Notes: generated from the sequence alone by a model not told the origin. Positions 4,010-56,693 are shown, counted from the stretch's first letter. The stretch is 64,000 nucleotides of DNA from Candidatus Omnitrophica bacterium UBA6233 (GCA_002440965.1 DJWJ01000016.1:7409-71408), one strand, 5' to 3'. A program made the numbers and translations.

Positions 4010-4063
4010 AACGCGTGATTTACATTCACGAAGTCAGGGGTTCAAGTCCTCTACCGCCCACCA
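3987..4063 (+). tRNA. tRNA-Val (anticodon TAC)
   Basis: Acceptor stem GGGCGGT/ACCGCCC, D-arm 'TAGTTCAGTTGGTTAGAAC', anticodon stem CGTGA/TCACG with loop 'TTTACAT', T-arm 'GGGGTTCAAGTCCTC', encoded CCA. Confidence 0.85.
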
Positions 4064-4131: not shown

Positions 4132-4207
4132 GGGGTCGTAGCTTAGCCTGGCTTAAAGCGCCTCCCTGTCACGGAGGAGATCGCGAGTCCGAATCTCGTC
4201 GGCCCCG
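4132..4207 (+). tRNA. tRNA-Asp (anticodon GTC)
   Basis: Acceptor GGGGTCG/CGGCCCC, anticodon stem CCTCC/GGAGG with loop 'CTGTCAC', T-arm 'CGAGTCCGAATCTCG'. No encoded CCA. Confidence 0.85.
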
Positions 4208-16921: not shown

Positions 16922-17017
16922 AAAATGACCAATAACCAAACCCCAAATCCGAATAAAATCTCAATTATTCAATTTCCAAAATTGGAATTTGAGATTTGGA
17001 GCTTCATTTGTCATTGT
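16922..17017. repeat. intergenic long imperfect palindrome (AAATGACMA...TTTGTCATT), related to the 47369/49226/52549 family
   Basis: The two arms 'AAATGACCAATAACCAAACCCCAAATCC' and 'GGAGCTTCATTTGTCATTG' are inverted relative to each other. Starts right after a stop codon. Confidence 0.5.
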
Positions 17018-41345: not shown

Positions 41346-42293
41346 ATGGCCGGATTAGATTTCGAAAAACCAATCGCTGAATTAGAGAAAAAGATACAGG
41401 ATCTAAGGCATTTTATCTCGGATAAGAAGATAGACCTTTCTTCCGAGGTTAAACGTCTCGAGGATAAACTCGAACATCTTAAAAAAGATACCTACACTAA
41501 TCTTTCCGCTTGGCAAAGAGTGCAGCTGGCCCGCCATCCCCAAAGACCATATACCCTTGATTATATAAACCTAATTATGTCGGATTTTATCGAGTTGCAC
41601 GGAGACAGGCTTTTTAGCGACGACAAAGCTATGGTTTGCGGGTTGGCTAAATTGGATAAACAGAAAATAGCGATTATCGGCCATCAAAAAGGCCGGGATA
41701 CCAAGGAAAACCTTAAGCGTAATTTTGGCTGCGCCCATCCAGAGGGCTATCGCAAGGCGCTTAGGGTTATGCAATTAGCCGAAGAATTTGGTTTGCCGGT
41801 AATAGTTTTTATTGATACGCCCGGAGCATATCCGGGAATAGGAGCGGAAGAACGCGGACAATCTCAAGCTATCGCGCTTAATTTAAGAGAAATGATTTCT
41901 ATTGCTACGCCAATAATTTCAGTTGTTATAGGGGAGGGCGGGTCAGGAGGAGCTTTAGGCGTGGGAGTGACTGATCGCATTTTTGTATTAGAAAATTCCT
42001 ATTATTCCGTTATTTCCCCCGAAGGTTGCGCTGCCATTTTGTGGAAAGACGGTTCAAAGGCGCCTCAGGCAGCTGAGGTTCTTAAACTGACAGGAGATGA
42101 TTTGACCGAACTTAAGATTATTGACGAAGTTATCCCTGAACCTTTAGGGGGAGCTCACCGGGATCCGCAAAAGACAGCCCAAAAATTAAAGGAAGCCCTT
42201 ATTAAGACTCTTAACGAATTAAAAGCTTACAATAAGGATGAGCTTTTGAAATTAAGGTACAAAAAGTTCCGCGACATAGGCATTGTGGCATGA
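41346..42293 (+). CDS. accA: acetyl-CoA carboxylase carboxyltransferase alpha subunit
   Basis: '[18 protein letters not shown]', '[13 protein letters not shown]' and 'GEGGSGGAL'. Confidence 0.85.
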
Positions 42294-42808
42294 TCGAGCA
42301 GGAATTATTATTATTGGGCTTACTTAAAGAAGGCCCCAAGCACGGCTACGATATTAAAACCAAGATAAAACAAATCCTTTCTTTATTCGCCGGAGTAGAA
42401 TTAAAATCCATATATTATCCTTTACGCATACTTGAAAAAAGAGGGTTGGTTGCTAAACGGACACTTAAACCCGGGAAAAGGCCTGAGCGGATGGTTTATG
42501 CTTTAACTTCCAAGGGAGAGGCTCGTTTTAATGAGCTTTTGAATAAAAGTCTGCTTAGTCTCAAGAGGCCTCAATTTAGCCTGGATTTGAGTCTGTATTT
42601 TCTGCACTATATGAATCCCGGAGTGGCAATCCGTCGCTTGCGCGCCAGATTACATATGTTGAATAAGATATCCCACGGCTTGGAACATATGGTTAAAACT
42701 TCATCTAAAGGTAAAACCGTTCCATTAAACCGTATTTTGGAACACAACTTTAGGCTCCTTAAAGCAGAATCCCAGTTTATCTCGCAATTAATTAATACAG
42801 TACAGTAA
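42290..42808 (+). CDS. PadR-family transcriptional regulator
   Basis: '[12 protein letters not shown]...[13 protein letters not shown]' winged-helix motif. Confidence 0.7.
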
Positions 42809-42884
42809 TTTTACTTGACACCATAGCGGCAATTTTATAAAATATAGGTGAGTTTAAATAGTAAAATTTTACTATATAAGAAGG

Positions 42885-43166
42885 GTGTTTCTTATGGATT
42901 GGGATAAGGCTACGCAGGAAAAGTTCAAGGTTATGGTTGCTAAAATACCTGTTTTCCATCGGCATATTACCGAGGGGGTAGTAACTAAGGGAGCACAGGG
43001 GTATGCTCAGGCAAGAGGCGCTGTAAAGATTGAAGAAGTGGATGTGATAAATGCATTTTTCTCGGATGTCCCTGCCGCCTTTTATAGTATGATGGTTAGG
43101 CTGCTGGAGCAGAACGGTTTTGATTATAAGAAATACGGTTTCCCCAAAAATAGACCCCTTATATGA
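42885..43166 (+). CDS. small protein with PCP_red-like (protochlorophyllide reductase 57-kDa subunit C-terminal-like) domain
   Basis: 'WDKATQEKFKVMVAKIPVFHRHITEGVVTKGAQGYAQARG' resembles the stand-alone PCP_red domain. Low certainty. Confidence 0.3.
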   Translation: MFLMDWDKATQEKFKVMVAKIPVFHRHITEGVVTKGAQGYAQARGAVKIEEVDVINAFFSDVPAAFYSMMVRLLEQNGFDYKKYGFPKNRPLI

Positions 43167-44170
43167 GAATCGCGGTTATTGGCGCAGGAGCCATAGGAAA
43201 TCTAGTCGCCGGTTATCTGAAATTGCAGGGCGAAGATGTTTATTTGGTCGGGCGGCAAGAGGCGGTTAGGGCTATCTCAGGGAGCGGGCTCAAGATCAGC
43301 GGTGTGCGGGGAGATTTTCAGGTTAATATCAGTATATACGATATGCTGGTTTCCAAACCCGAGCTCTTAATCTTAACTACAAAAACGCAAGATATAGAGC
43401 CGGCGCTAAAAGATAATTTCAGTTTGATCAAAGATACTATTATTCTGACGACGCAAAACGGTCTTGCTGCCGAAAGAATAGTAGCCAAGTTTGTCCCGGA
43501 AAATAATATTCTTTCGAGCATTGTTATGTTCGGCGCTACTTACCTGGAACCAGGCAAGGTTGTTCATAATTTTGAAGGAAGTTGGGTGTTGGGAAATTTA
43601 TTCTCTGAGTCTATGGATGGGCGCCTGCTTTCTTTAAGCTTGATTTTGGATAAAGCATTTCCGGCGGTAGTTAGCGAAGACATTTTGGGGATGAAATATC
43701 TCAAGGTGTTTGTCAATGCCAATAACTGTATAGCGGCAATATTAGGCGTAAGTATGCAGGAAGCTTTCTTAGACCCCCAGGTGAGCAGAGTAAGCGTTGC
43801 GATTTGGAGGGAAGGTTTTAAGGTAATTTCAAAGTCCGGGCTCAAGCTTGTTTCTTTGCCGGGATTCCCGATTGAAAATGTGACTCGGCTTATTTCTCTT
43901 CCTCCGGAAGAAGCAGCTAAAATTTTCTCGGCAACCATGAGTAAGTTGAGCCGCGACCCGCTCTACGGTTCAATATTACAGAGTATTAAAAGGGGAAGGC
44001 TTTCGGAGGTCGATTATATTAACGGAGAATTTGTAACTTTAGCCGGGAAGTGTAATTTAAAGGCAAGTTTAAATAAAAAATTGGTTGAAATGGTGCATGA
44101 AGTAGAAAAGAATAAACGGTTTTTTAGTAAATCCGAATTTTTAACCGCTACAGAAAGATTATTAAATTAA
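43163..44170 (+). CDS. 2-dehydropantoate 2-reductase family (PanE/ApbA-like) oxidoreductase
   Basis: N-terminal 'MRIAVIGAGAIGNLVAGYL' Rossmann fold; ApbA_C-like C-terminus. Confidence 0.7.
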   Translation: MRIAVIGAGAIGNLVAGYLKLQGEDVYLVGRQEAVRAISGSGLKISGVRGDFQVNISIYDMLVSKPELLILTTKTQDIEPALKDNFSLIKDTIILTTQNGLAAERIVAKFVPENNILSSIVMFGATYLEPGKVVHNFEGSWVLGNLFSESMDGRLLSLSLILDKAFPAVVSEDILGMKYLKVFVNANNCIAAILGVSMQEAFLDPQVSRVSVAIWREGFKVISKSGLKLVSLPGFPIENVTRLISLPPEEAAKIFSATMSKLSRDPLYGSILQSIKRGRLSEVDYINGEFVTLAGKCNLKASLNKKLVEMVHEVEKNKRFFSKSEFLTATERLLN

Positions 44171-44171
44171 A

Positions 44172-44768
44172 ATGCCCGAAGTCAATTCGCCTTTCCCAAA
44201 ATTAAAGCTTACAGTTACAGGAGTTTTTGGAAACTGTTACCATGGGTATGAAGCTGGAGATGAAATCATTCTGGAAGATTTTACCCATCCTCCTAAGCAT
44301 TTTTGTTTAGGGTTGGCGCATGCGCTCTTTCCGGTAATTTATGCTTTGAGTTTCGGCGCAAGGTTCGGCTTTCGCGATAATCAGCGGTCACTTTTGGTAA
44401 CTTGTCCTGACGGCGGCAAATTGGAATTTAAAGCCGAGATTCTGGATAAGGAAGGCAAAGTGGAAGTTTTCCCTAAAGACCCCAATCATAAATTTAGTCC
44501 TAAGAAAATGGTTATTGAAGTAGCCAAAACCAAAGGGAAATGCACTTTTGGTTATAAAGTGGGAGATAAATGGGAGACTCAAGGATTGAAATGTATTCCG
44601 GGTTTTTGCGGAGCAGCGTTTCATACAGCGTTTCCGGCGCTCTTCGCTTTAAATTTCGGGGCAAAGTTTTTCTTTATGCAGGATCCGGATTCGATCGATA
44701 CCGTAACCTGCCCTGACGGCGGAAATATTGTGTTTAAGGTTACCAGAGTAGAAGAAAATAAGAAGTAA
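44172..44768 (+). CDS. duplicated Cys-rich domain protein (TIGR04076-like), two tandem ~95-aa modules
   Basis: Internal repeat: 'GNCYHGYEAGDEI...CLGLAHALFPVIYALSFGARFGF...VTCPDGGKLEFKAEI' vs 'GKCTFGYKVGDKW...CGAAFHTAFPALFALNFGAKFFF...VTCPDGGNIVFKVTRV'. Confidence 0.4.
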   Translation: MPEVNSPFPKLKLTVTGVFGNCYHGYEAGDEIILEDFTHPPKHFCLGLAHALFPVIYALSFGARFGFRDNQRSLLVTCPDGGKLEFKAEILDKEGKVEVFPKDPNHKFSPKKMVIEVAKTKGKCTFGYKVGDKWETQGLKCIPGFCGAAFHTAFPALFALNFGAKFFFMQDPDSIDTVTCPDGGNIVFKVTRVEENKK

Positions 44769-44879: not shown

Positions 44880-46142
44880 ATGAAAAAAAGAAGAGTAGTG
44901 ATTACGGGGATTGGCGTAATTTCGCCTAATGGCATAGGTAAAGATAAAGTTTATCAGGCGATGACCAACGGCGTTTCCGGAATAAAACGGGTAGATGGTT
45001 TTGATGTTTCGGTATTTAATACCAAGATCGCCGCGGAAGTCCGTGACTTTGATCCGTTTAAGCTCGGGCTTACTCATGACGAAGCTGTACGTATGGATAG
45101 ATACGTACAATTTGGAGTGGTTGCCGGAAATATGGCGATTAAGGATAGCACCCTGGATCTTTCGAAAGTTAATCCTGAGAGGATCGGAGTTTGTCTTGCC
45201 AATGCCATTTGCGGGACAAAATATATGGAAGAAGAATTCGCTCTTGTAACTGACGATGGCAAGAAAGCAATTGATCCGTCAAAGGTCCGTCCTGACCTTT
45301 ATGATGCCGCGATGTTTAATACACCTTCCATTGAATTATCTTCGAAATATCATTTAAAAGGAATATGCAATACGCTCTCAACCGGCTGCACAGCCGGGAC
45401 TGATTCTTTAGGGTTTGGTTTAGAGACGATCCAGGATGGAGAGCAGGATATTATGATTTGCGGAGCGGCAGAGGCTCCGATCACGCCGATTACTTTTGGC
45501 GCTTTTGATGTGGTAAATGTTTTATCAGCCCGTAATGATGATCCTGAAGCTTCGTCACGGCCGTTTGATAACAAACGCGATGGATTTGTCTTAAGTGAAG
45601 GCGCCGGGATTTTAATTTTAGAAGAATTGAATCACGCTTTAAAACGTAACGCCCATATTTATTGCGAGGTTTTGGGTTTTGGCACCAGCTGTAACGCTTT
45701 TCATATGACTGACCTTCCGGGAGACGGAGGAGCAATGACTAATTGTATAACCCTGGCGTTAAAAGATGCCGGGATCAAACCGCAAGAGATAGATTATATC
45801 AGCGCCCACGGATCAAGCACGAAAATGAATGATATCTTCGAAACCAATGCTTACAAAACGGTTTTCGGAGATTACGCGTATAAACTTCCCATAAGTTCGC
45901 TTAAGTCAATGATCGGCCATCCCCTGGCTGCTTCTAACGCCGTGGAGATGACTGTTTGTTCGATGATTTTTGAAAAAAATATCCTTCCTCCGACTATCAA
46001 TCAGGAAGAGAAGGATCCCTTGTGCGACTTGAATTATATTCCCAATAAAGCAATCACCAAAAAAGTAAATACTATTATTAAGACTAGCTCTGGATTTTCC
46101 GGAATTCATTCTTCGTTGGTTGTGAGGAGATATAATGGATAA
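44880..46142 (+). CDS. beta-ketoacyl-ACP synthase (KAS I/II-like; KS-alpha)
   Basis: Active-site Cys 'LSTGCTAGTDSLG'; His 'SAHGSSTKMND'; His 'IGHPLAASNA'; 420 aa. Confidence 0.85.
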   Translation: MKKRRVVITGIGVISPNGIGKDKVYQAMTNGVSGIKRVDGFDVSVFNTKIAAEVRDFDPFKLGLTHDEAVRMDRYVQFGVVAGNMAIKDSTLDLSKVNPERIGVCLANAICGTKYMEEEFALVTDDGKKAIDPSKVRPDLYDAAMFNTPSIELSSKYHLKGICNTLSTGCTAGTDSLGFGLETIQDGEQDIMICGAAEAPITPITFGAFDVVNVLSARNDDPEASSRPFDNKRDGFVLSEGAGILILEELNHALKRNAHIYCEVLGFGTSCNAFHMTDLPGDGGAMTNCITLALKDAGIKPQEIDYISAHGSSTKMNDIFETNAYKTVFGDYAYKLPISSLKSMIGHPLAASNAVEMTVCSMIFEKNILPPTINQEEKDPLCDLNYIPNKAITKKVNTIIKTSSGFSGIHSSLVVRRYNG

Positions 46143-47361
46143 GATAGCGATTACTGGCATAGGTATTGTCAGTCCTTCAGGAATAAATAAACGCCAGTTT
46201 TGGGCGAATATAAAATCCGGCAGGTCTTTTGTAAAAGAAATTACTCGTTTTGATGCTTCTAAATATCCGTCGCATATAGCCGGGCAAATCGATGAGCTGA
46301 ACAAGTATAGCAATATCTCCGAGCGCCTGCTGAAAAAGATCGATGCGTTCTCGCATATGGCTTTAATTGCTTCTGAGCTTGCTTTGCAGGATGCCGGGAT
46401 AGATATAAAGAATGAAGACCCGAATTTAGTCGGCATATTTTTAGGTAACGCTATCGGCGGATGGCTTTACGCTGAAACAGAATTGCGTGATTTATATATC
46501 GAAGGCCGGGAAGGTGTTTCTCCTTACATGGCTTCAGCGTGGTTTCCGGCTGCCCCGCAAGGACAAGTTTCTATTTATTATGGTATTAAAGGATTTTCCA
46601 AAACAGTTGTCGCCGATAGAGCCGGTTCCTTGATGGCCTTAGGTTACGGAGCCAAGGTTTTAAATAAGAATAAATTAAATATGATTTTAGCCGGAGGCAT
46701 GGAAGCGCCGGTGTCGCCTTACGCGCTTTTATGCTGCAATACTTACGGAGCTTTATCCAAAAATAATTCCCAGCCTCAAGAAGCTTACAAGCCATTTGAT
46801 AAAAAGCGCGATGGCTTTGTAATCGGTGAAGGCGCGGGGATTGTGGTTATGGAGAGTGTGCAGAGGGCAAGTAAAAGAGGAGTTAAACCTTTGGCTTATA
46901 TTTCCGGATACTCGACCAGCTGCGACGGAATTGACCGGATCAATTGCGCAAGCGACGGGGTAGAATTAGCCAGAGCAATAAAACTAGCGCTTGCCGATGC
47001 TAAAACCAATATTGATGAAATTGATTATATAAGTCTAGATGGCGCGGCTATAAATTTGTGGGATGATTCTGAACTGCAGGCGATTAAAAGCATTTTTGGC
47101 GCCAGGACCAAAGATATTCCAATGAGTTGCCCTAAATCTATGTTCGGAAATTTACTGGGGGCAAGTGGAGCGGTGGATATGATTACTACTATCTTAGCGA
47201 TGGAACATAGTTTGGTTCCGGTTACTTTAAATTTAGACGAACCAAGTATGAAAGGTTTTAATTATATTACAAAAGAAGCCAAGGAATACAAAATCGATAA
47301 AGCCCTGGTGATTTCGCGCGGCAGGGGCGGAATCAATTCAGTTCTGGTGGTTGAAAAGTAA
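46135..47361 (+). CDS. ketosynthase-like partner lacking the catalytic triad (chain-length-factor / KS-beta-like)
   Basis: KS fold, but the active-site Cys is replaced ('VVADRAGSLMAL') and both His positions are altered ('LDGAAINL', 'GNLLGASGA'). 8-bp overlap with the KS-alpha gene. Confidence 0.7.
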   Translation: MDKIAITGIGIVSPSGINKRQFWANIKSGRSFVKEITRFDASKYPSHIAGQIDELNKYSNISERLLKKIDAFSHMALIASELALQDAGIDIKNEDPNLVGIFLGNAIGGWLYAETELRDLYIEGREGVSPYMASAWFPAAPQGQVSIYYGIKGFSKTVVADRAGSLMALGYGAKVLNKNKLNMILAGGMEAPVSPYALLCCNTYGALSKNNSQPQEAYKPFDKKRDGFVIGEGAGIVVMESVQRASKRGVKPLAYISGYSTSCDGIDRINCASDGVELARAIKLALADAKTNIDEIDYISLDGAAINLWDDSELQAIKSIFGARTKDIPMSCPKSMFGNLLGASGAVDMITTILAMEHSLVPVTLNLDEPSMKGFNYITKEAKEYKIDKALVISRGRGGINSVLVVEK

Positions 47362-47368
47362 ATAGTTT

Positions 47369-47500
47369 AATGACAAATGACAAAATCCAAAGCACAAAAT
47401 AAATCTAAAGTTCAAATGTCAAATACTAAAACTAATGTTTTGTTATTTAATTTTTGGAATTTGAATTTATTTTGGATCTTGTGCTTTGTCATTTGACATT
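47369..47500. repeat. intergenic long palindromic repeat, family 'AATGACAAATGACAAAATYCAAAGCACAAAATAAAT', copy A
   Basis: The 5' arm 'AATGACAAATGACAAAATCCAAAGCACAA' is mirrored by 'TTGTGCTTTGTCATTTGACATT'. Lies between the KS-beta stop and the rSAM RBS. Confidence 0.7.
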
Positions 47501-47515
47501 AAAAGAGGAGGAGTT

Positions 47516-48976
47516 ATGAAGATATTATTTGTAATGCCTAAAGTCGGTGCCTGGGCAACCCATGGGATTCACCGTTCGCCGAATCAGTTATACGCGCATT
47601 GGGCTGCTTATGTGCGTGAAAAAGGATATAAGGATGTGGCGGTTATTGACGGTAAAGCTGAGCAGATTCCGATGGATCAGCTTATCGAACAGGTAAAACT
47701 TAAGAACCCCGATGTGGTGGTAATGGGTGAGCAGCTGCATGGTTATGGCGGATACGGAGTTTTACGCCATTTTAAAGACGCGGCCATTGGAATTAAAAAA
47801 GCCCTGCCTAAAACCAAGATAATTCTCGGCGGATTATGGTATTCGGCAATGCCTGTTCCGACTTTAGAAGAAATTCCGGAAGTTGATTTCGTGGTTATGG
47901 GAGAAGAGGAGTCATTTGGAGATTTAATCGAGGCAATTGATAAGAATAAGCCGCTTAAGGATGTTGGCGGAGTAACTTCGCGCATCGATGGTAAGATAGT
48001 CATGGGCCCGCATAAACCATTGATGACGGATTTGGATAAATTACCTTTACCGGCTTATGATTTGTTTCCGATGGATAAGTACTCGGGCCACACTTATTGG
48101 AAACCGTTTGTGGATATGGTTACTTCCCGCGGCTGCCCTTCAGCCTGCACATTTTGTTATGAGTGGGATCAGTTTGATCCGCGCTCGCCTTCGGATTTCT
48201 TAAAATGGCGCGCCAAGAGCCCAGAAAGAGTAATTGAAGAATTGAAACTCCTGCGCGATAAATACGGAGTCAAAGTAGTAGTAATTCAGGATGATAATTT
48301 TATCGTGGATCCTGCGCGCGTCAAGAAATTCTGCGAGTTAAAAAAGAAAGCTAACATTGATACCAAATGGGTTGCTTTGGGCAGGGCTACTGATTGGATC
48401 AATTGCGAATCGATCTTACCTCTGATGAAAGAAACAGGTCTATTCATGGGAGTCTTTGGAATTGAAGTAACTACCCAGTCGGAACTTAAGAAGATCGCTA
48501 AAGGTATAACCATTGACCAGATCCAAAAGACAATCGATATCCTGCGCAAACAGAATATCGCGATTGTCGCTGACATTATGATGGGTTTTGATTATGATAC
48601 CGAAGAAATAATTAAGCAGCGTTTTGAGTTTACCGACGCGGTGGATCCGGATATTTTATGGGTTGGTTACGTGACTCCTGCGCCGAATTCGCCGATGTGG
48701 AAGGTTGCCTTAAAGAAAAACTGGATCGATCCCAAGAAAGTGGATTTCTCGACCTGGGATTTTCTGCACCCGGTAATTCCTACGGATCACTTAACTACTG
48801 AAGACTTAGGCAGGCTTGGTTCATGGTGTATGCGCGAATTTTTCTCCAAACCCGGACGGGTCAACCGGATCATGGAGAGCGATTTTGATCCGCTGGCCAA
48901 GCTTTGTTTCCAGGATGTTATGAATGGCATCAACAAGTGGGAAGCAGCCGCGACCAAGGGCGAAGTTCAGATATAA
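47516..48976 (+). CDS. B12-binding-domain radical SAM enzyme (class B rSAM)
   Basis: N-terminal cobalamin-binding-like domain; 'SRGCPSACTFC' CxxxCxxC motif. RBS AGAGGAGG before the ATG at 47516. Confidence 0.8.
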   Translation: MKILFVMPKVGAWATHGIHRSPNQLYAHWAAYVREKGYKDVAVIDGKAEQIPMDQLIEQVKLKNPDVVVMGEQLHGYGGYGVLRHFKDAAIGIKKALPKTKIILGGLWYSAMPVPTLEEIPEVDFVVMGEEESFGDLIEAIDKNKPLKDVGGVTSRIDGKIVMGPHKPLMTDLDKLPLPAYDLFPMDKYSGHTYWKPFVDMVTSRGCPSACTFCYEWDQFDPRSPSDFLKWRAKSPERVIEELKLLRDKYGVKVVVIQDDNFIVDPARVKKFCELKKKANIDTKWVALGRATDWINCESILPLMKETGLFMGVFGIEVTTQSELKKIAKGITIDQIQKTIDILRKQNIAIVADIMMGFDYDTEEIIKQRFEFTDAVDPDILWVGYVTPAPNSPMWKVALKKNWIDPKKVDFSTWDFLHPVIPTDHLTTEDLGRLGSWCMREFFSKPGRVNRIMESDFDPLAKLCFQDVMNGINKWEAAATKGEVQI

Positions 48977-48990
48977 GCTAAAGGAAGGAT

Positions 48991-49227
48991 ATGGAGATGA
49001 AAGCGAAAGTTAAAGAAGTTTTGGTTAATTTGCTCAAAGTCAAACCTGAAGAATTAAAGGATGGTGTTTCTTTGGAAGAGAGTATAGGCGTGGATTCAAC
49101 TGAAATGGTTGAGTCAGTCATTGCTCTGGAAAAGGCTTTTGGAGTGAAGTTAAGCCCTAAAGAAATTAGCAAGTCTTCCAGCATTGACGATATCGCGAAA
49201 ATTATAAGTAGCAAGATAAGCGTTTAA
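48991..49227 (+). CDS. acyl carrier protein
   Basis: 78 aa; phosphopantetheine-attachment context 'GVDSTEMVESVIALEKAFGV'. Confidence 0.7.
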   Translation: MEMKAKVKEVLVNLLKVKPEELKDGVSLEESIGVDSTEMVESVIALEKAFGVKLSPKEISKSSSIDDIAKIISSKISV

Positions 49228-49328
49228 TGACAAATGTCAAAATTCAAATGTCAAAATTCAAATGTAAAAACCAAGGTATTTAGTTTTGTAATTTGCGCTT
49301 TGACATTTGAATTTTGACATTTGACATT
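49226..49328. repeat. intergenic long palindromic repeat, same family, copy B
   Basis: 'AATGACAAATGTCAAAATTCAAATGTCAAAATTCAAATG' is mirrored by 'CTTTGACATTTGAATTTTGACATTTGACATT'. Lies between ACP and the cyclase gene. Confidence 0.7.
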
Positions 49329-49340
49329 AGCTATTTATTC

Positions 49341-50138
49341 ATGAAGATTATTGATTTAAGTCTTCCAATAGATGACAAGGCGTTTGAGGTGCACAAGGTA
49401 GCCATTGAGCGGGTAACTCATAAGGCGGGGATTAAGAAGTTTAACCGCGTGATTATGGGTAAGACGCTGGCGGGAAGAGTTAAATACCTTTTGGGAAAAC
49501 GCATCCTCAAGAAAGAAGATTTACCTGACGAAGAATTTTTATCACTGGAAGTCGTGCATTCTCCGGTTCACGTCGGCACCCACCTGGATTATTCATTCCA
49601 TTACGGATCAAAATCCGAAAACCGCACCTCTAAAACAGCCGAAGAGATCCCGCTGGAATATTGTTATCAAGACGGAGTAAGGCTCAATCTTACCCATAAA
49701 AAACCCAATGAAAAAATTCTTTCCGCGGATATCGAAGCAGCGCTTAAAAAAATAAATTATAAATTAAAACCTCTGGATATTGTTTTTTTGCATACCGGAG
49801 CGGATAAGTTTTTTGGTTCGCCAAAATATTTCTCGGATTATCCGGGAGTGGATACTTCGGCGATAGATTATCTTTTGGACCAGGGAGTCAAGATTTTTGG
49901 GGTGGATACAATGGGTATTGACCGTCCATACAGGTTTATGCTTAAAGAATTCCTGGAGAGTAAAAATCTTAAGGCTTTATACCCGGCGCATTTTTATGGA
50001 AGAAAAAGAGAATTCATCCATATCGAGAGGCTGGCTAATTTAGAGAAGCTTCCGGCAACTGGGTTTAAGGTTATTTGTTTTCCGGTGAAGATTAAAAATA
50101 CAGGCGCGGCTTGGTCGCGAGTAGTTGCAATATTATGA
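49341..50138 (+). CDS. cyclase-family protein (PF04199-like; kynurenine-formamidase/putative-cyclase fold)
   Basis: 'MKIIDLSLPI' start and 'HSPVHVGTHLDYSFHY' (HxGTHxD) metal-binding motif. Start moved to 49341 because the tabulated ORF start runs into the repeat. Confidence 0.65.
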   Translation: MKIIDLSLPIDDKAFEVHKVAIERVTHKAGIKKFNRVIMGKTLAGRVKYLLGKRILKKEDLPDEEFLSLEVVHSPVHVGTHLDYSFHYGSKSENRTSKTAEEIPLEYCYQDGVRLNLTHKKPNEKILSADIEAALKKINYKLKPLDIVFLHTGADKFFGSPKYFSDYPGVDTSAIDYLLDQGVKIFGVDTMGIDRPYRFMLKEFLESKNLKALYPAHFYGRKREFIHIERLANLEKLPATGFKVICFPVKIKNTGAAWSRVVAIL

Positions 50139-50191: not shown

Positions 50192-50629
50192 ATGGGACAC
50201 ACTTGTAATTCGATAATAATCAAGGCGCCATATGATTTAGTATTTGATATTTCCAATGATATCCCGCGCTGGACCGAATTATTTGGCAGCGAATACAAAA
50301 AAGCTGAGATTACAAAAAAAGAAGAGAACAAGATTACTTTTTGCCTGACTGATGATGAAGATAAGTCTTGGATTTCTTGGAGACTGCTTTATAAAGACAA
50401 ATTCTTTACTTATTCTGAAAGGCAGGAGCCGAAATTTCCGTTTAAATATATGAAAATCGTCTGGCTCTATACCCAAAAGCCGGAAGGAGTGGAATTAACC
50501 TGGATTCAACATTTTGAAATGGATGATAAAGCCAAGTTCAATGATGAGCAGGTCGAGGGCTTCATTAATAAGCATTCCAAAGACAATCTGTTAATTTTTA
50601 AGAATGTAATTGAAAAAGCAGCAGCTTAA
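50192..50629 (+). CDS. SRPBCC (Bet v1/START-like) polyketide cyclase/dehydrase-like protein
   Basis: 'SIIIKAPYDLVFDISNDIPRWTELF' is typical of the Polyketide_cyc2/SRPBCC N-terminus; 145 aa. Confidence 0.55.
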   Translation: MGHTCNSIIIKAPYDLVFDISNDIPRWTELFGSEYKKAEITKKEENKITFCLTDDEDKSWISWRLLYKDKFFTYSERQEPKFPFKYMKIVWLYTQKPEGVELTWIQHFEMDDKAKFNDEQVEGFINKHSKDNLLIFKNVIEKAAA

Positions 50630-50705: not shown

Positions 50706-51482
50706 ATGAATCAGGACTTAAAAGGTAAGGTAGCGATTGTAACCGGAGCAAGCCGAGGGATTGGCAAGGCTCTTGCCTGCACTGCGGCAAGCTTAGGAGT
50801 AAATTTAACTATTGCTGCCCGCGGAGAAGGCCAATTAAAAGAAGCAGCTGAAGAAATCGCCAAAAAATATAAGGTAGATGTTTTAGCTGTTCCTTGCGAT
50901 GTCACTAAATTAGAGGACCTCGAGAATTTGGTGAATAAAACCAAGGAGAAATTCGGTAAGATCGATATTTTGATCAATAACGCCGGAGTTTCTTCGCAGT
51001 ATCCATTTCAAGATCAGCCGATTGAGGATTTTGAGCGCCTGGCCCATACAAATTATTTGGGTTATGTGCGCCTGATCCGTTTGGTTATCAACGATATGAT
51101 CAAAAATAAAAGCGGCGCGATCATCAATATGGTTTCCGGCTCTACTCTTTGCGATCCGCTACCCAGGAATTTTATCGTTTATAGCTCATTAAAAGTCGGT
51201 TTGCGCGCGTTCTCTAAAGGGTTATTTTGGGAATTGCGCGACCACGGTATCAAAGTTACTTCGATATTGCCCGGGGTTACGGACACGGATCTGACCGGAA
51301 AATTAAGCGAGATTACCGCTGATACTAAAAGATTGATGAGCACTGAGGCAATCGAAGACGCGGTCAGGTTTGCTTTGACTGTGCCGCAGAATGTTTGTCC
51401 CCTAGAGATCGCGGTAATCAATCAGCAAACCCCGTGGACAGCTCCGGTAATACCATTTGCACAGAAGCATCCGGGAAAATAG
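50706..51482 (+). CDS. short-chain dehydrogenase/reductase (FabG/ketoreductase-like)
   Basis: 'GKVAIVTGASRGIGKALA', 'NNAG' and 'YSSLKVGLRAF' (YxxxK). Confidence 0.8.
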   Translation: MNQDLKGKVAIVTGASRGIGKALACTAASLGVNLTIAARGEGQLKEAAEEIAKKYKVDVLAVPCDVTKLEDLENLVNKTKEKFGKIDILINNAGVSSQYPFQDQPIEDFERLAHTNYLGYVRLIRLVINDMIKNKSGAIINMVSGSTLCDPLPRNFIVYSSLKVGLRAFSKGLFWELRDHGIKVTSILPGVTDTDLTGKLSEITADTKRLMSTEAIEDAVRFALTVPQNVCPLEIAVINQQTPWTAPVIPFAQKHPGK

Positions 51483-51546: not shown

Positions 51547-52155
51547 GTGAAAAAAATATTTTTAGCGGCGGCATTGTTATTAGGGATAACAGGAATTAGT
51601 TTTACGGCAGATGGAAATTTGCTGGTTGATGATTTTGAGATCGCGGTTTCAGCTGGGCCAGACGGCACAGTTGATTTTGGCGCGGGAAACGGCTCAATTA
51701 TAAAAGTTACCGCGGCCGCGGATGTTAAAAATACCGGAAAACAAGGTCTAAAGGTTGATTTTGACGCGGTTACCGGCGGGTATATGTATGTTGCCCGCGG
51801 CGAAGGGCTTGACGCGCATAATACCGGCTGGCTCGTAAATCCGGATAGCATCAAATGGCAGGATTATAAGGCATTTTCTTTTTATATGTATGGCTCAGAT
51901 TCCAAAGGTAAAATAGCTTTTGATCTTAAAGACAGTGGAAATGAAATCTGGCGTTTTATAGTTGAAGATAATTTCAAGGGGTGGAAGCAGATCATCTGTA
52001 ATTTTGATCAATTTACCGTAAGGGGCGATTGGCAGCCGCAAACAGCTGATAATAACGCGGCGCTTAATTTTCCGATCCGTTCATTTCAATTTGAGCCGCT
52101 TCCTCCATTAAAGGGCACGATTTATTTTGATACAATGGAGTTGATCAAGAAATAA
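51547..52155 (+). CDS. secreted hypothetical protein (beta-sandwich / carbohydrate-binding-module-like)
   Basis: Signal peptide 'MKKIFLAAALLLGITGISFTA'. No catalytic motif recognised. Confidence 0.4.
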   Translation: MKKIFLAAALLLGITGISFTADGNLLVDDFEIAVSAGPDGTVDFGAGNGSIIKVTAAADVKNTGKQGLKVDFDAVTGGYMYVARGEGLDAHNTGWLVNPDSIKWQDYKAFSFYMYGSDSKGKIAFDLKDSGNEIWRFIVEDNFKGWKQIICNFDQFTVRGDWQPQTADNNAALNFPIRSFQFEPLPPLKGTIYFDTMELIKK

Positions 52156-52547
52156 TGAATAAGCGGGATTTAAAGAACTTAAAAAAGCGTTACCTCATCT
52201 GGTTTTATAAGACTTCCAAAGAGGCGCTTGATAAAGTCGAGCGGAAATTCAGCCAGGTTGATATCGACCGTTTTATTCTTAAGGAATTGCAAGCTTCGGA
52301 TAAGGATAAAGCGGTTGAACTTTTGATCGCTCAGTTTGAAGCGTATATTCAAAAGAAGGAAGCAGATGGCCTTGACTTAAAGTTCGAGAATAAGAAGTTA
52401 AAGCCGGATTATTTATTCCTTTCCTGGAAATTAGAAGCAATTGAAAAAGCGATTGTCAAAGAGCTGGGTAAAAAGGGGCTCGAAGAGATAAAGCTTCTCT
52501 ATGAAGTTGAGATGATTGAGCGAATATTGAGAAGTACAGAACATTAA
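52155..52547 (+). CDS. hypothetical protein
   Basis: 130-aa charged, helical ORF; no recognisable motif. Confidence 0.3.
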   Translation: MNKRDLKNLKKRYLIWFYKTSKEALDKVERKFSQVDIDRFILKELQASDKDKAVELLIAQFEAYIQKKEADGLDLKFENKKLKPDYLFLSWKLEAIEKAIVKELGKKGLEEIKLLYEVEMIERILRSTEH

Positions 52548-52548
52548 G

Positions 52549-52690
52549 TAATGACAAATGACAAAATTCAAAGCACAAAATAAATTCAAAATCAAAATTA
52601 CCAATGACAAAACCTTGGTTTTGACATTGGGTATTTGTCATTTAAATTTATTTTGAATTTTGAGCTTTGGTATTTGTCATTTTGAATAAT
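52549..52690. repeat. intergenic long palindromic repeat, same family, copy C
   Basis: 'AATGACAAATGACAAAATTCAAAGCACAAAATAAATTC' is mirrored by 'GAGCTTTGGTATTTGTCATTTTGAAT'. Shares its first ~36 nt with copy A at 47369. Confidence 0.7.
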
Positions 52691-52760
52691 CGTTCAGCAA
52701 CCCCCGGGCTTTAGCCTGAGGAGTATTCATTTTTTTGGCTTTGGGATTTGACATTAAATT

Positions 52761-53669
52761 ATGATTATAGACAGTCATAGTCACTGGTTACCTGAAGGAA
52801 TAATCAATAGCGCCCATTTCTATCATAAAGGTTGGGGAGATATTGAGGCTCAGCTTAAGATGATGGATGCGGCGGGGATTGCTAAGGCGGTTTTAACATA
52901 CCCAACTTCTGACGCGCATTTAAAAATGGGGAGTATCTCTGAAGTCGTGCGTATATTTAATGACCACGTCGCTAAAATCATCAAAAAATATCCGGATAGA
53001 TTTATCGGAGCGGCAATTCTTCCCATAGACCACCAGCCGGATATGCTTAAAGAAATAAAGCGGACTACAGAAGAATTGGGATTTAAAGCTATTTCTTTAG
53101 CAACTAGTTATGGCGGAGTTTATTTGGATGATGCTAGATTTATGGATGTATATAAGTTAGCCCAAAGCAAAAATTTACCGATCTTTGTGCATTCGCAGAT
53201 TGTTAAGCCGATAGGAACTGAGCGCGTAGAGGATCCGCTACTTACTCCGGTAATTGAGTATGTGTTTGATACGACGATGTGTATTGGCAAGCTTTTGATG
53301 TCGGATATTCTGCGCGATTACCAGACTAAATTTATTTTTGGTTATTTTGGCGGAGTTACGCCGTTTTTGGCAAATAGATTTGACGCGACTTATCAAATGC
53401 TGCGAGGGATGAACTTTGTTAAGGATTTGCAAGCTAAGCCTACAGAATTATTAAAGAATATTTATGTGGATACTAGCGGAGATACGACTAAAGCTAATTT
53501 TCAGGCAGCCTTAGAGTTGTTCGGGCCGCAGCATATTTTATGGGGGAGCGACTGGCCAGCCAAGCGCGACATCGCTCCAGGCATCAATGCAATCAAAGAA
53601 TTGAATATATCCGACGCGGATAAGAATAGTATATTAGGCGGTAATTTAGCTCAGCTTTTTGCTCTTTAG
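52761..53669 (+). CDS. amidohydrolase-2 family (PF04909, TIM-barrel metal-dependent hydrolase/decarboxylase)
   Basis: 'MIIDSHSHW' and 'ILWGSDWP' are hallmarks of the ACMSD/amidohydrolase_2 family. Confidence 0.7.
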   Translation: MIIDSHSHWLPEGIINSAHFYHKGWGDIEAQLKMMDAAGIAKAVLTYPTSDAHLKMGSISEVVRIFNDHVAKIIKKYPDRFIGAAILPIDHQPDMLKEIKRTTEELGFKAISLATSYGGVYLDDARFMDVYKLAQSKNLPIFVHSQIVKPIGTERVEDPLLTPVIEYVFDTTMCIGKLLMSDILRDYQTKFIFGYFGGVTPFLANRFDATYQMLRGMNFVKDLQAKPTELLKNIYVDTSGDTTKANFQAALELFGPQHILWGSDWPAKRDIAPGINAIKELNISDADKNSILGGNLAQLFAL

Positions 53670-54206: not shown

Positions 54207-54581
54207 ATGATAAAATTCTTAAATCTGGTTATCGGCGGGGCAGCGGGGACGATTGCCCGTTATTTGCTGGCAGGGTTTGTGTATAGGGTGGCAGGGACAA
54301 GTTTTCCTTACGGAACGCTTATCGTAAATGCCTCCGGATGTTTTATCTTAGGGATCTTGGCTTCTTTAGCGGATAAGAAATTTGTGCTTGGGCCGGATGC
54401 CAGAATATTATTGATGATCGGTTTTTGCGGCGCGTTTACTACCTTTTCAACTCTGATATTTGAATCCGATAATCTGGTTAGAAATGGGCAGGCAATAAAA
54501 GCATTCAGTAATATATTGATTAGTGTAATTTTAGGCTTTATTTTATATAGAGTCGGTTCTTTATTAGGCGAGATTATTTAA
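54207..54581 (+). CDS. crcB: fluoride ion channel CrcB/Fluc
   Basis: 124 aa, four TM helices; 'GGAAGTIARY' and 'GFCGAFTTFSTL' motifs. Confidence 0.85.
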   Translation: MIKFLNLVIGGAAGTIARYLLAGFVYRVAGTSFPYGTLIVNASGCFILGILASLADKKFVLGPDARILLMIGFCGAFTTFSTLIFESDNLVRNGQAIKAFSNILISVILGFILYRVGSLLGEII

Positions 54582-54594
54582 ACCGGGAGATAAA

Positions 54595-54927
54595 ATGAAA
54601 ATTCCTGCGGACGGTAAGCTCTTAAGAATTTTTATCGGCGAAGCGGACAAATGGAATGGCAAACCGCTTTATGAAGAGATCGTGCTTCTGGCCAAAAAAA
54701 CAGGGATGGCTGGAGCAACTGCCATAAAAGGATTTATGGGTTTTGGATGCAAGAGCCATATGCATACTGCAAATCTGCTCAGATTATCCGAAGACTTGCC
54801 GATTGTCATTGAAATCGTCGATAGCGAGGATAAGATCAACACGTTTATCCCTCAACTTGATAGTATGGTTAAGGAAGGTTTAATTACTCTGGAAAAAGCT
54901 AACGTAATCATGTACCGCGCGCAATAA
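54595..54927 (+). CDS. DUF190-family protein (PII-like; commonly paired with crcB)
   Basis: 'LLRIFIGEADKWNGKPLYEEIV...GATAIKGFMGFG'. Confidence 0.7.
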   Translation: MKIPADGKLLRIFIGEADKWNGKPLYEEIVLLAKKTGMAGATAIKGFMGFGCKSHMHTANLLRLSEDLPIVIEIVDSEDKINTFIPQLDSMVKEGLITLEKANVIMYRAQ

Positions 54928-54943: not shown

Positions 54944-55693
54944 ATGCAAATGGTAAAAGATGTGCATCTGACGGGAAAAGATCTGACACAAATGGTTCAA
55001 TTACGCCAGCAGGATGTGGGCAAATACGCGATTGTTCCGGGCCCCAAGGATAGGCTGGAAGTTTTAATGAAGAAAATCGAGAATCCGGTCAAGAATTTTA
55101 CTTTTATGGAATATTCCATGTTCACCGGGACTTATCAAGGGATCAAGATTACCATGATGAACGGCGGAAGATTTTCTACGGATACCTCGATTACCTCGGA
55201 AGTAATGTGCAATGCCAGAATTGATAATATTATCCGCGCGGGCTCTGCCGGTTCTTTGGATGAAAATATAAAAGTAGGAGATTTATTCGTGGTTGATGAA
55301 GTTATCCGCGGAGACGGGGTTACGCCTTATTATGTGGATAAGGACTTTAAAACAGTTGCCGATAAAAAAATTGCCGATACGCTTTATGAGGCGGGTAAGG
55401 CTATGGGTATAAATATCCATCGTGGAAAGGCCTGGAGCACGGATGCGCTTTTACGCGAAACCAGAGAAATCGTCGAAGCTAAGCGTAAAGAGGGGGCAAG
55501 AGCCGTAGATATGGTCTCTTCAACGCTTTTGACCATTGCCCAGACTTATGGCGTTAAAGCAGGTTCGATCCTGGCCGTAAGCGATAATGTGATTACCGGC
55601 GAAATGGGTTTTATGAATCCATTGTATTATATGGCTGAGGCGAATATTTTAAAAATTGCCCTTGAGGCAGTGGTAAAATTAGAGGGAAAATGA
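54944..55693 (+). CDS. PNP/UDP-family nucleoside phosphorylase (MTA/5'-deoxyadenosine/purine nucleoside phosphorylase-like)
   Basis: 'IDNIIRAGSAGSL' and 'VDMVSSTL' are typical of the PNP_UDP_1 fold. Confidence 0.65.
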   Translation: MQMVKDVHLTGKDLTQMVQLRQQDVGKYAIVPGPKDRLEVLMKKIENPVKNFTFMEYSMFTGTYQGIKITMMNGGRFSTDTSITSEVMCNARIDNIIRAGSAGSLDENIKVGDLFVVDEVIRGDGVTPYYVDKDFKTVADKKIADTLYEAGKAMGINIHRGKAWSTDALLRETREIVEAKRKEGARAVDMVSSTLLTIAQTYGVKAGSILAVSDNVITGEMGFMNPLYYMAEANILKIALEAVVKLEGK

Positions 55694-56658
55694 AATTTTC
55701 TCCGCTTTTCTGGCCGATCCAGTTTAAAAACGGGATAATTTATATCCTTGATGAAACTCTCCTGCCGCATAAGCTTACCTATATAAAGGCAAAGAACTAC
55801 CAGGAGGCCTGTCGCGCGATAAAAGAAATGAAAACCCGGGCTGTGGGCCAGGTCATTCTGGTAATGTATATTTTTCTGCAATTACTCGAGCAAGGGAAAA
55901 AGAAAGACCTGGTTAAAGTTGCTCAAGCTATCAACTCTACCCGTCCGACTTTATCATTTAAGTTTTTAACCGATATGGTTTTGGGTTGGGCTAAATCCGG
56001 CGCTCCTTTAGATAAATGCATTACGGGATTTTTAGAAGGTTTAAAATACAGCCGGATCAAACAAGCTGAAGAAGCCAGCAAATTAATTAAAAGCGGTGAT
56101 TGCATATTAACTCATTGCAATATCAGTGGTCTCCTGCCTTTAATCGGAGAAATTTGTCAAAAGCAGGGTAAAAAGATAAGTTTTTTCGCGACTGAAACCC
56201 GTCCATATATGCAAGGCTCGCGTTTAACTGCCTGGGAGTTAAAACAAGCCGGATTTGACGTAACCATAATCACCGATAATATGGTTGCCGCGGTTATGTC
56301 TTTGGGTAAGGTAAATAAAGTTATTGTCGGCGCGGATCATTTGGCGCAAAACGGAGATATCGCCAATAAAATCGGAACTTATGGAATCGCGGTCTTAGCT
56401 AGACATTTCAATCTGCCTTTTTATGTTTTATGCCCGCCGGCTTCCGGATTAAAGAGCGGCAAAGATATCAAAATCGAGATCAGACCGGATATCGAGATGC
56501 TTGAGTATCAGGGTTTGCGCTTGGCGCCTATTGGCGCGAAAGGTTATTATCCGGCATTCGATGTTACTCCCAATAAATTAATTACCAAACACATCCATTT
56601 AAATGTAGGGACGGTTCTCAATTCAAGGCAGAAGTGTCCCCGGAGGGGACAGTTTTAG
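55690..56658 (+). CDS. eIF-2B alpha/beta/delta family isomerase (MtnA-like 5-(methylthio/deoxy)ribose-1-phosphate isomerase)
   Basis: 'GADHLAQNGDIANKIGTYGIAVLARHFNLPFYVLCP'. Confidence 0.75.
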   Translation: MKFSPLFWPIQFKNGIIYILDETLLPHKLTYIKAKNYQEACRAIKEMKTRAVGQVILVMYIFLQLLEQGKKKDLVKVAQAINSTRPTLSFKFLTDMVLGWAKSGAPLDKCITGFLEGLKYSRIKQAEEASKLIKSGDCILTHCNISGLLPLIGEICQKQGKKISFFATETRPYMQGSRLTAWELKQAGFDVTIITDNMVAAVMSLGKVNKVIVGADHLAQNGDIANKIGTYGIAVLARHFNLPFYVLCPPASGLKSGKDIKIEIRPDIEMLEYQGLRLAPIGAKGYYPAFDVTPNKLITKHIHLNVGTVLNSRQKCPRRGQF

Positions 56659-56693
56659 GTTGGTTTGAGAACCGTCCCTAATAGAGGAGAGAG

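Follow-up and report, generated by a model that had tools for sequence, protein, structure and literature searches.

The finishing of aromatic type II polyketides is normally the work of oxygen-dependent enzymes. An 'ancestral' cluster layout, comprising a ketosynthase (KS), a chain length factor (CLF), an acyl carrier protein (ACP), and TcmN- and OxyN-type cyclases (KS-CLF-ACP-TcmN-OxyN), has been reported for anaerobes and other non-actinomycetes, and is found in the dendrubin (den), AQ-256 (ant), clostrubin (clr), and pyxidicycline clusters; the dendrubin cluster, identified in an anaerobe, encodes no methyltransferase and no oxidase/oxygenase (PMC7693217). KS-CLF pairs in Omnitrophica have been mentioned generically in a catalogue (PMC10132072). 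Here we analyzed a 64,000-nucleotide (nt) stretch of DNA from Candidatus Omnitrophica bacterium UBA6233 (GCA_002440965.1 DJWJ01000016.1:7409-71408), referred to as the window, with a particular emphasis on the gene at positions 47516-48976, whose product, a radical S-adenosylmethionine (SAM) enzyme, is designated rSAM. We found that rSAM is a fixed part of an uncharacterised aromatic type II polyketide synthase (PKS) cluster and the best conserved of its components; a literature search found no published description of this cluster or of the enzyme family.

Several other described systems share individual features with the locus. The radical SAM 1,2-diol dehydratase AprD4, acting in apramycin biosynthesis, is paired with the NADPH reductase AprD3. 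BchE, the anaerobic Mg-protoporphyrin IX monomethyl ester oxidative cyclase, is an oxygen-independent replacement of an oxygenase, and TokK, ThnK, and CysS are class-B methylases with pantetheinylated substrates. Anammox Cluster I (amxACP, amxFabZ, amxFabF2/amxFabFmut, a phytoene dehydrogenase (PDH), and a B12-rSAM) combines a dedicated ACP and a KS/CLF-like FabF pair with a B12-type radical SAM enzyme (bioRxiv 10.64898/2026.05.19.726425; PMC13459092). Trios of a phosphorylase or kinase, an isomerase, and an aldolase constitute established salvage routes for 5'-deoxyadenosine, known as the dihydroxyacetone phosphate (DHAP) shunt (PMC6079011).

The radical SAM enzyme and its conserved gene set

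The open reading frame (ORF) encoding rSAM lies on the plus strand, starts with ATG at 47516, just 3' of the ribosome-binding site AGAGGAGGAG, and ends with TAA at 48974-48976, giving a protein of 486 amino acids (aa). The TTG at 47486, which appears as the start in the ORF listing, was rejected, as nearly all homologues among the matches listed are 486 aa long. Homologues at E <= 1e-10 numbered 924. The first-pass annotation had recognized a B12-binding-like N-domain and a radical SAM core with the sequence CPSACTFC, and both were recovered above the Pfam cutoffs, as B12-binding PF02310 (aa 30-133, nt 47603-47914; 38.2 bits, cutoff 32.1) and Radical_SAM PF04055 (aa 201-371, nt 48116-48628; 72.5 bits, cutoff 29.5). 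The CPSACTFC stretch (nt 48134-48157) is a CX3CX2C motif, C207-x3-C211-x2-C214, in which all three cysteines are invariant in an alignment of 60 sequences. In the same alignment, the N-domain keeps the clade hallmarks GG106, D124, and G129-E130-E131; no other conserved Cys motif was found, and therefore there is no sign of an auxiliary Fe-S cluster. The AlphaFold2 model built on this alignment (mean pLDDT 92.6, pTM 0.92) gave AprD4, MgmA, TsrM, OxsB, TokK, and CysS as top Foldseek matches in the PDB, all of them class-B-type architectures, the fold of the full-length model matching TsrM, OxsB, TokK, CysS, and MgmA. By its Pfam domains, Cys motif, and structural model, the product of 47516-48976 is a radical SAM enzyme of class-B architecture.

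Binding or use of cobalamin by rSAM cannot be read from the B12-type domain alone, because the closest solved structure, AprD4, is reported to bind none; according to a 2026 review, both AprD4 and ArsL fall within class-B similarity networks yet bind no cobalamin (PMC12931638). It is nevertheless unlikely that rSAM is a cobalamin-independent enzyme of the AprD4 type, with its N-terminal Rossmann domain retained as a structural remnant. AprD4 comes first among solved proteins in sequence comparison (E 1.7e-14) as well as in fold comparison (E 3e-25), rSAM has Trp after the GG motif, where its neighbours commonly have His, and Rfam yielded no cobalamin riboswitch in the 64-kb window, where its only matches are two tRNAs (3987-4060 and 4132-4207). 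The AprD4 sequence alignment, however, covers only residues 164-436 of rSAM and leaves the N-domain outside, the score on the AprD4 family diol dehydratase model NF033070 is 71.2 bits against a cutoff of 500, and the N-domain not only exceeds the PF02310 cutoff but also aligns with the BchE, HpnR, and BzaD models. This alternative concerns the cofactor and not the role of the enzyme, and in that respect it overlaps with the reaction favoured below.

From at least 187 genome stretches encoding a relative of rSAM, 80 Omnitrophota loci were kept, representing 80 different metagenome-assembled genome (MAG) records, and the window proteins were searched in them, a locus being eligible for a given protein when its contig reaches far enough. 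Each of the top-ranking genome matches carries the label Omnitrophota/Omnitrophica, 'uncultured Planctomycetales', or plain 'bacterium' MAG. The association of rSAM with KS and ACP recurs outside the window: KS was present in 63/63, CLF in 67/67, and ACP in 72/72 eligible loci. The cyclase was found in 68/68, the SRPBCC aromatase/cyclase in 65/66, the short-chain dehydrogenase (SDR) in 63/63, and the Amidohydro_2 protein in 49/49; the small protein s93 and the ApbA-type reductase were each present in all 57 eligible loci, and the tandem TIGR04076 protein in all 58, with the phosphorylase, isomerase, and aldolase detected in 44, 42, and 41 of 45, respectively. The cluster genes in these loci lie on one strand and in the same order throughout. 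Among the cluster proteins, rSAM is the most conserved (median identity 89%, minimum 84%, over the 80 loci). The cluster ranges across Omnitrophota and occurs also in Thermodesulfobacteriota and other metagenomic lineages; in a Thermodesulfobacteriota genome (locus L001), the same cluster encodes an rSAM that is 77% identical, MMPL and MFS transporters are added, and the aldehyde dehydrogenase (ALDH) is absent. Such extreme conservation of rSAM suggests a core envelope or redox metabolite as the product, and not an occasional antibiotic.

Sister rSAMs at 47-53% identity also have the KS/CLF/ACP gene set nearby, in other gene orders. In locus L087 (rSAM ~47%), the order is rSAM, s89, ApbA, DUF4440, KS, CLF, ACP, cyclase, SRPBCC, SDR, and decarboxylase, preceded upstream by genes for an AMP-ligase, a phosphorylase, two IF-2B proteins, an aldolase, and ALDH. 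Locus L004 (rSAM ~47%) shows the order rSAM, s89, ApbA, DUF4440, with the contig ending inside the KS gene, and in both loci the rSAM, s89, and ApbA genes abut or overlap. In L088, an Omnitrophota variant (rSAM 53%), rSAM is followed by s90, ApbA, the TIGR04076 tandem gene, KS, CLF, ACP, and onward. Further along the same contig (L088 10001-21446), a second B12-rSAM paralogue (37% identical) precedes genes for a molybdoenzyme of the xanthine dehydrogenase family and for molybdenum cofactor biosynthesis. In L089 (rSAM 45%), AMP-ligase, UbiE-like methyltransferase, rSAM, phosphorylase, two IF-2B, aldolase-SCP2, ALDH, MMPL, and DUF1329 genes follow one another, and their junctions overlap.

These gene orders bear on the first-pass proposal that the position of rSAM between the KS pair and ACP points to a substrate tethered to ACP. 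In the window the position is as described, with KS and CLF upstream and the ACP gene 14 nt 3' of rSAM, but it is not conserved in L087, L004, L088, or L089 and holds only in this lineage; the placement therefore does not imply an ACP-tethered substrate. By analogy with other class-B enzymes, a substrate bound to ACP or pantetheine is plausible. Two partnerships of rSAM are steadier than its adjacency to ACP, namely that with s93 and the ApbA-type reductase, and that with the module of phosphorylase, isomerase, aldolase, and ALDH. In other lineages, the cluster is flanked by genes for MMPL/RND-type transporters and DUF1329/DUF1302 outer-membrane proteins (L001 3208-5574 and 19031-21461; L089 8345-11592), a hint at a hydrophobic component of the envelope as the product.

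The family is sharply bounded. A scan of 1.8 billion cluster representatives revealed a few full-length sister groups at 35-48% identity, followed by a sea of ~30%-identical B12-rSAMs. A sister rSAM of 37% identity (P0123), on a contig of 3 kb, has unrelated genes beside it; the association with PKS genes may therefore end near 40% identity.

The aromatic polyketide synthase genes

The KS gene (44880-46142, plus strand) encodes both Pfam ketoacyl-synt domains, N and C, with an intact Cys/His/His triad, and among PDB entries its product matches AntD best (6smo_B, 370 bits), followed by the actinorhodin KS (1tqy_A, 364 bits), both ranking above all FabFs. The next gene (46135-47361, plus strand) overlaps it by 8 nt, and its product scores 239 bits on the act CLF 1tqy_B. 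Because the catalytic Cys (replaced within 'ADRAG'), the first His (Asp), and the second His (Asn) are all replaced, this second KS is regarded as a catalytically dead, CLF-type partner. All three losses recur in the four clusters aligned. Canonical CLFs have Gln at the position of the active-site Cys, whereas the motif 'ADRA[GS]S', kept in 4/4 aligned CLFs of this cluster type, places Arg/Asp there.

The ACP (48991-49227, plus strand; PF00550, 39 bits) has the phosphopantetheine site 'GVDSTE'. It is followed on the same strand by a metal-dependent 'Cyclase' (49344-50138; PF04199, 95.9 bits) with an HxGTHxDxxxH motif, labelled OxyN/DpsY type because of the KS-CLF-ACP-TcmN-OxyN architecture (PMC7693217), and by an SRPBCC aromatase/cyclase of the WhiE-ORFVI/TcmN type (50192-50629; Pfam Polyketide_cyc2), matching WhiE 3tl1 (E 1.9e-23) and TcmN 2rez (E 4.4e-21) in the PDB. 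Further along the plus strand are a ketoreductase-like SDR (50706-51482; adh_short 174.6 bits and a KR domain) and a LigW-like Amidohydro_2 protein (52761-53669), which resembles non-oxidative aromatic-acid decarboxylases, its best PDB matches being 5-carboxyvanillate decarboxylase 4icm (E 1.6e-21), ACMSD, and gamma-resorcylate decarboxylase.

The locus thus shares with the ancestral clusters the KS-CLF-ACP-TcmN-OxyN core, a KS nearest to AntD, an expected terminal decarboxylation, and anaerobe hosts. It differs from them in the CLF residues at the Cys position and in its extra fixed genes, namely those encoding rSAM, s93, the ApbA-type reductase, the tandem TIGR04076 protein, and the 5'-deoxyadenosine-salvage-like module. 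These protein similarities mark the cluster as an aromatic type II PKS, and not a lipid/fatty acid synthase (FAS)-like or ladderane system. Of the lipid/PKS setting assumed at first, the PKS part stands, as homologues occur with KS/CLF/ACP wherever the contig is long enough; the lipid part does not.

It is very improbable that the cluster makes ladderane-type or other unusual fatty-acid lipids, an antiSMASH-style label borrowed from anammox Cluster I for clusters with KS, ACP, and B12-rSAM in Omnitrophota and Desulfobacterota. Like anammox Cluster I, the locus combines a heterodimer of KS and dead KS, a dedicated ACP, and a B12-type rSAM within one operon of an anaerobe, both KS proteins score well on FabF models, and 'ladderane' clusters have been reported in Omnitrophota and Desulfobacterota MAGs (PMC9902471). 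However, rSAM reaches only 70.2 bits on the ladderane-associated lipid B12-rSAM model TIGR04072 (cutoff 360) and is not a member of that family; KS is nearer to the AntD and actinorhodin enzymes than to the ishigamide KS 6kxd (243 bits), the closest structural relative of amxFabF2; and the cluster contains an aromatase, cyclases, and an aromatic-acid decarboxylase, with no FabZ or phytoene-dehydrogenase homologue found in it. A ladderane or FAS-type lipid cluster was rejected on three grounds: the family score of rSAM, the lack of FabZ and PDH, and the aromatic PKS enzymes encoded.

Enzyme relatives, partner proteins, and candidate reactions

Compared with curated NCBIfam families, rSAM missed every cutoff. 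The top family was BchE TIGR02026 (203.1 bits, cutoff 481; alignment over residues 3-431), ahead of HpnJ TIGR03471 (153.8 bits, cutoff 577.6), ApyD (115 bits, cutoff 750), and HpnR (98 bits, cutoff 650). BchE resembles rSAM in its two-domain class-B architecture, similar length, and replacement of an oxygenase, the role proposed below for rSAM; the similarity is non-specific, however, since on the BchE model sister rSAMs and unrelated neighbours of ~30% identity score 154-279 bits, several of them above this rSAM. The context also differs, as the cluster genes encode PKS, cyclase, and salvage functions, no bacteriochlorophyll genes lie nearby, and the sole Mg-chelatase-family match is a ChlI-like ATPase outside the cluster (38157-39686, minus strand). 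No hopanoid synthesis gene was found among the scanned cluster genes. BchE or HpnJ identity was therefore rejected, given scores far under the cutoffs and a ranking common to unrelated neighbours. The public label 'anaerobic Mg-protoporphyrin cyclase' is attached to such rSAMs because of these non-specific BchE-model scores, and the present finding corrects automatic 'ladderane' or 'BchE' labels of these genes. Within a known superfamily, rSAM forms an unassigned branch, and its cluster, of a known type, is a new and very conserved variant.

The first of the steady partners, s93 (42885-43166, plus strand; ATG 42894 is probably the true start), is a small protein of ~88 aa, predicted to be all-helical (AlphaFold2 pLDDT 87.7), with 917 stand-alone homologues of ~86-99 aa. 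It gives sub-threshold matches to DUF2621 and PCP_red, and one relative (s90 of L088) exceeds the DUF2621 cutoff. In Foldseek, structures of PCP_red, the C-terminal domain of protochlorophyllide reductase BchB, were the most probable matches (2kru, probability 0.85, but with a non-significant E of ~0.5). Its counterparts (L087 11473-11742, L088 1281-1553) are translationally coupled to rSAM in the sister clusters, and no Rosetta-stone fusion of s93 to rSAM or to the reductase was found among the 120 top matches. The s93 gene is overlapped by 4 nt by that of an ApbA/PanE-family NAD(P)H-dependent oxidoreductase (43163-44170, plus strand; PF02558 and PF08546), which passes the TIGR00745 subfamily cutoff (166.7 bits, cutoff 141). 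Next to it is the gene for the Cys-rich tandem TIGR04076 protein (44172-44768, plus strand; 98.4 bits in two stretches), which is among the best-conserved proteins of the cluster (median identity 85%) and for which a PDB sequence search found no solved relative. It is a possible redox or Fe-S partner; an annotation hints at the redox role (PMC8667426), and elsewhere a TIGR04076 gene lies two genes away from that of a glycyl-radical activating enzyme.

The second partnership involves four plus-strand genes at 54944-59179. They encode a DeoD/uridine-phosphorylase-like nucleoside phosphorylase (PNP_UDP_1; 54944-55693; PF01048, with all NCBIfam matches under the cutoff), an MtnA-like, IF-2B-family isomerase of 5-substituted ribose-1-phosphate (55690-56658; PF01008 180 bits; TIGR00524 194.9 bits, cutoff 185.9), a class II aldolase with a C-terminal SCP2 lipid-binding domain (56694-57695; Aldolase_II 121.7 bits; SCP2 25.9 bits, cutoff 21.3), and an NAD(P)-dependent ALDH (57692-59179; PF00171 552.7 bits), whose gene overlaps that of the aldolase. 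Of the 120 top homologues, nearly all retain the fused aldolase length of ~331-335 aa, as do the proteins of L001, L087, and L089; ALDH adjoins the same module in L087 and L089, and in L089 the phosphorylase gene directly follows rSAM. A phosphorylase, an isomerase of the MtnA type, and an aldolase of class II clustered in series match the composition of the DHAP shunt, and equivalog models (MtnA, MTAP, aldolases) all stayed under the cutoff on the module proteins. Judged by domain content, the module resembles 5'-deoxyadenosine salvage of the DHAP-shunt kind. It differs from the described routes (MtnP or DrdK, MtnA/DrdI, Ald2/DrdA) in lying inside a biosynthetic cluster and being co-inherited with one rSAM, in having a phosphorylase that is not MTAP-like and an aldolase fused to SCP2, and in the ALDH usually attached to it. 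Such a putative route of its own for 5'-deoxyadenosine removal is unusual for a biosynthetic cluster.

At the general level, rSAM is likely a tailoring enzyme of the polyketide pathway. As to the reaction, we tentatively favour, with a probability of about 0.4, a non-methylating radical redox step carried out with s93 and the ApbA-type reductase as a substitute for an oxygenase. This step is favoured because the nearest characterised relatives (BchE, HpnJ, AprD4) are non-methylases, because in L087, L004, and L088 the rSAM, s93-type, and ApbA genes adjoin or overlap one another, and because the co-encoded module would handle 5'-deoxyadenosine-type nucleosides, the putative disposal encoded in the cluster being for 5'-deoxyadenosine only. 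It is favoured also because L089 has a separate, conventional UbiE-like methyltransferase beside rSAM, because L088 adds to rSAM a second paralogue and a molybdenum hydroxylase, an enzyme type for oxygen-independent hydroxylation, and because the hosts are anaerobes and the cluster lacks an oxygenase. The coupling of rSAM to an NAD(P)H-dependent reductase gene recalls the AprD4/AprD3 pair; AprD4 differs in being only ~19-20% identical to rSAM and in acting on an aminoglycoside sugar, and the reductase here is of the ApbA type and accompanied by the extra small protein s93.

In the proposed mechanism, drawn in its first two steps from the superfamily, the [4Fe-4S] cluster held by CX3CX2C would cleave SAM reductively, and the resulting 5'-deoxyadenosyl radical would take hydrogen from a polyketide intermediate, either carrier-tethered or already cyclised. 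The substrate radical would then be converted to a carbonyl by oxidation or beta-elimination, in the manner of BchE or AprD4. Both s93 and the ApbA-type NAD(P)H reductase would work with rSAM, the reductase taking the carbonyl product, and the B12-type domain would relay electrons or hydroxyl. 5'-Deoxyadenosine, formed as a stoichiometric by-product, would be cleared along a DHAP-shunt-like route by the cluster's phosphorylase, its isomerase of the MtnA type, its class II aldolase, and its ALDH. As the net outcome, the anaerobe would replace the oxygenases usual in aromatic polyketide tailoring. The narrower proposal that in rSAM anaerobes have the long-sought, oxygen-free replacement of anthrone-type oxygenases is rather doubtful. 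rSAM is a good candidate for how anaerobes modify aromatic polyketides without oxygen, and a defined enzyme family with its gene set offers an entry point to oxygen-independent tailoring of aromatic polyketides and to heterologous expression.

Several points weigh against a non-methylating redox step. The ApbA family is best known for the reduction of 2-oxo acids, not of polyketide ketones. The BchE/HpnJ ranking of rSAM is non-specific, a salvage module suits any radical SAM reaction, and there is no obvious electron acceptor for an oxidation in the cluster, unless the TIGR04076 protein fills that role. In addition, all hosts are uncultured, and methyltransferases make up the majority of the class-B radical SAM enzymes characterised (PMC12931638).

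That usual chemistry underlies a possible, if doubtful, alternative, in which rSAM is a cobalamin-dependent radical C-methyltransferase, with methylcobalamin methylating a radical on a non-nucleophilic carbon of an ACP- or pantetheine-tethered polyketide or starter and two SAM consumed per turnover. The B12-binding domain above the Pfam cutoff, the clade hallmark residues, and the position of the gene between CLF and ACP in this lineage are consistent with it, and TokK and CysS, clear structural relatives with the class-B fold, set a precedent for substrates tethered to a carrier arm. Their sequence similarity to rSAM is weak, however (E 7e-5 and 5.5e-4), and the TokK/ThnK/CysS proteins are longer (~620-680 aa), with larger C-terminal domains; methylase families score under BchE and HpnJ, and the methylase structures MgmA, TokK, and CysS rank under AprD4 in both sequence and fold. 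Methylation would also offer no explanation of why rSAM is coupled to s93 and an NAD(P)H reductase. The alpha-carbons of polyketides are nucleophilic and normally methylated by ordinary SAM methyltransferases, one of which already stands beside rSAM in L089, and the cluster encodes putative disposal of 5'-deoxyadenosine and nothing for S-adenosylhomocysteine.

A different use of the salvage-like module, adenosylation followed by trimming, is quite unlikely. In this route, rSAM would attach the 5'-deoxyadenosyl radical to a hydrophobic intermediate, polyketide or lipid, at an sp2 carbon, as HpnH and MqnE do; the phosphorylase would remove adenine, the isomerase and SCP2-fused aldolase would cleave the ribose, and ALDH would yield R-CH2-COOH, a carboxymethyl group, an acid that in some variants an AMP-ligase would then load onto ACP. 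Three different gene orders keep the module with rSAM, and in L089 the two are coupled translationally; the aldolase always has the SCP2 lipid-binding domain, which should be dispensable for cleavage of 5-deoxyribulose-1-phosphate, and AMP-ligase genes adjoin the module in L087 and L089. MMPL exporters, located after the module in L089 and before the cluster in L001, and a weak HpnG similarity of the phosphorylase recall hopanoid side-chain synthesis. In the fluoroacetaldehyde route, a final oxidation gives fluoroacetate. That analogous route has been described up to the aldolase step (PMC6079011). Against adenosylation, neither an AMP-ligase nor an MMPL gene was found among the larger ORFs scanned in the window, within or flanking the cluster, and the L001 cluster lacks ALDH. 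We know of no class-B enzyme that adenosylates, and HpnH and MqnE have no B12 domains. Moreover, ordinary salvage of the DHAP-shunt kind fully accounts for the module (PMC6079011). If adenosylation were true, the ribose of SAM would become a two-carbon building block for an envelope lipid to be exported, representing a new way of forming C-C bonds in polyketide/lipid biosynthesis and the first adenosylating class-B enzyme.

Palindromic elements and other neighbouring features

The copies of a palindromic repeat noted on both sides of rSAM are real, but they bracket the rSAM-ACP pair and not rSAM alone. The first (47366-47503), in the CLF-rSAM gap, is an inverted repeat with 67-nt arms that are 75% complementary, and the second (49225-49329), in the ACP-cyclase gap, has 50-nt arms with 84% complementarity; a third palindrome lies near 52550-52755, and a further motif copy at 17005-17015. 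The palindromes are long and AT-rich and begin with TAATGACAAATG; the motif common to them was observed 8 times, against 1.9 expected. Read as RNA, the first copy forms a long hairpin (-39 kcal/mol, z = -5.0), and no Rfam family matched the palindromes. Compared with the medians of related loci, the gaps are expanded here (CLF-rSAM 154 vs 48 nt, ACP-cyclase 116 vs 2 nt, and h130-decarboxylase 213 vs -1 nt), and the expansions are common only to L007, a 98%-identical locus. The palindromes behave like lineage-specific, mobile insertions of the repetitive extragenic palindrome (REP) or miniature inverted-repeat transposable element (MITE) type. A functional link between them and rSAM was rejected, given the tight junctions of the related loci other than L007.

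A PadR-family regulator (42290-42808, plus strand; PF03551) marks the upstream edge of the cluster. Between its gene and s93, where an operon promoter is expected, lies the best promoter-like site of the region, a sigma-70-like TTGACA-17-TAAAAT (42815-42843; 11/12 positions), in a scan that overall was not above chance. Within the cluster, a conserved 130-aa protein, h130 (52155-52547, plus strand), gave no family match in family scans and was present in 51/53 eligible Omnitrophota loci and in L001. A CBM11-like protein with a signal peptide (51547-52155) occurs in about half of the related loci and is missing from the version in Thermodesulfobacteriota. Genes for CrcB (fluoride channel) and DUF190 (54207-54927), inserted between those of the decarboxylase and the phosphorylase, are found in only ~12 of the 80 related loci. 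The window also encodes an STT3-like oligosaccharyltransferase homologue (PF02516; 33873-35534).

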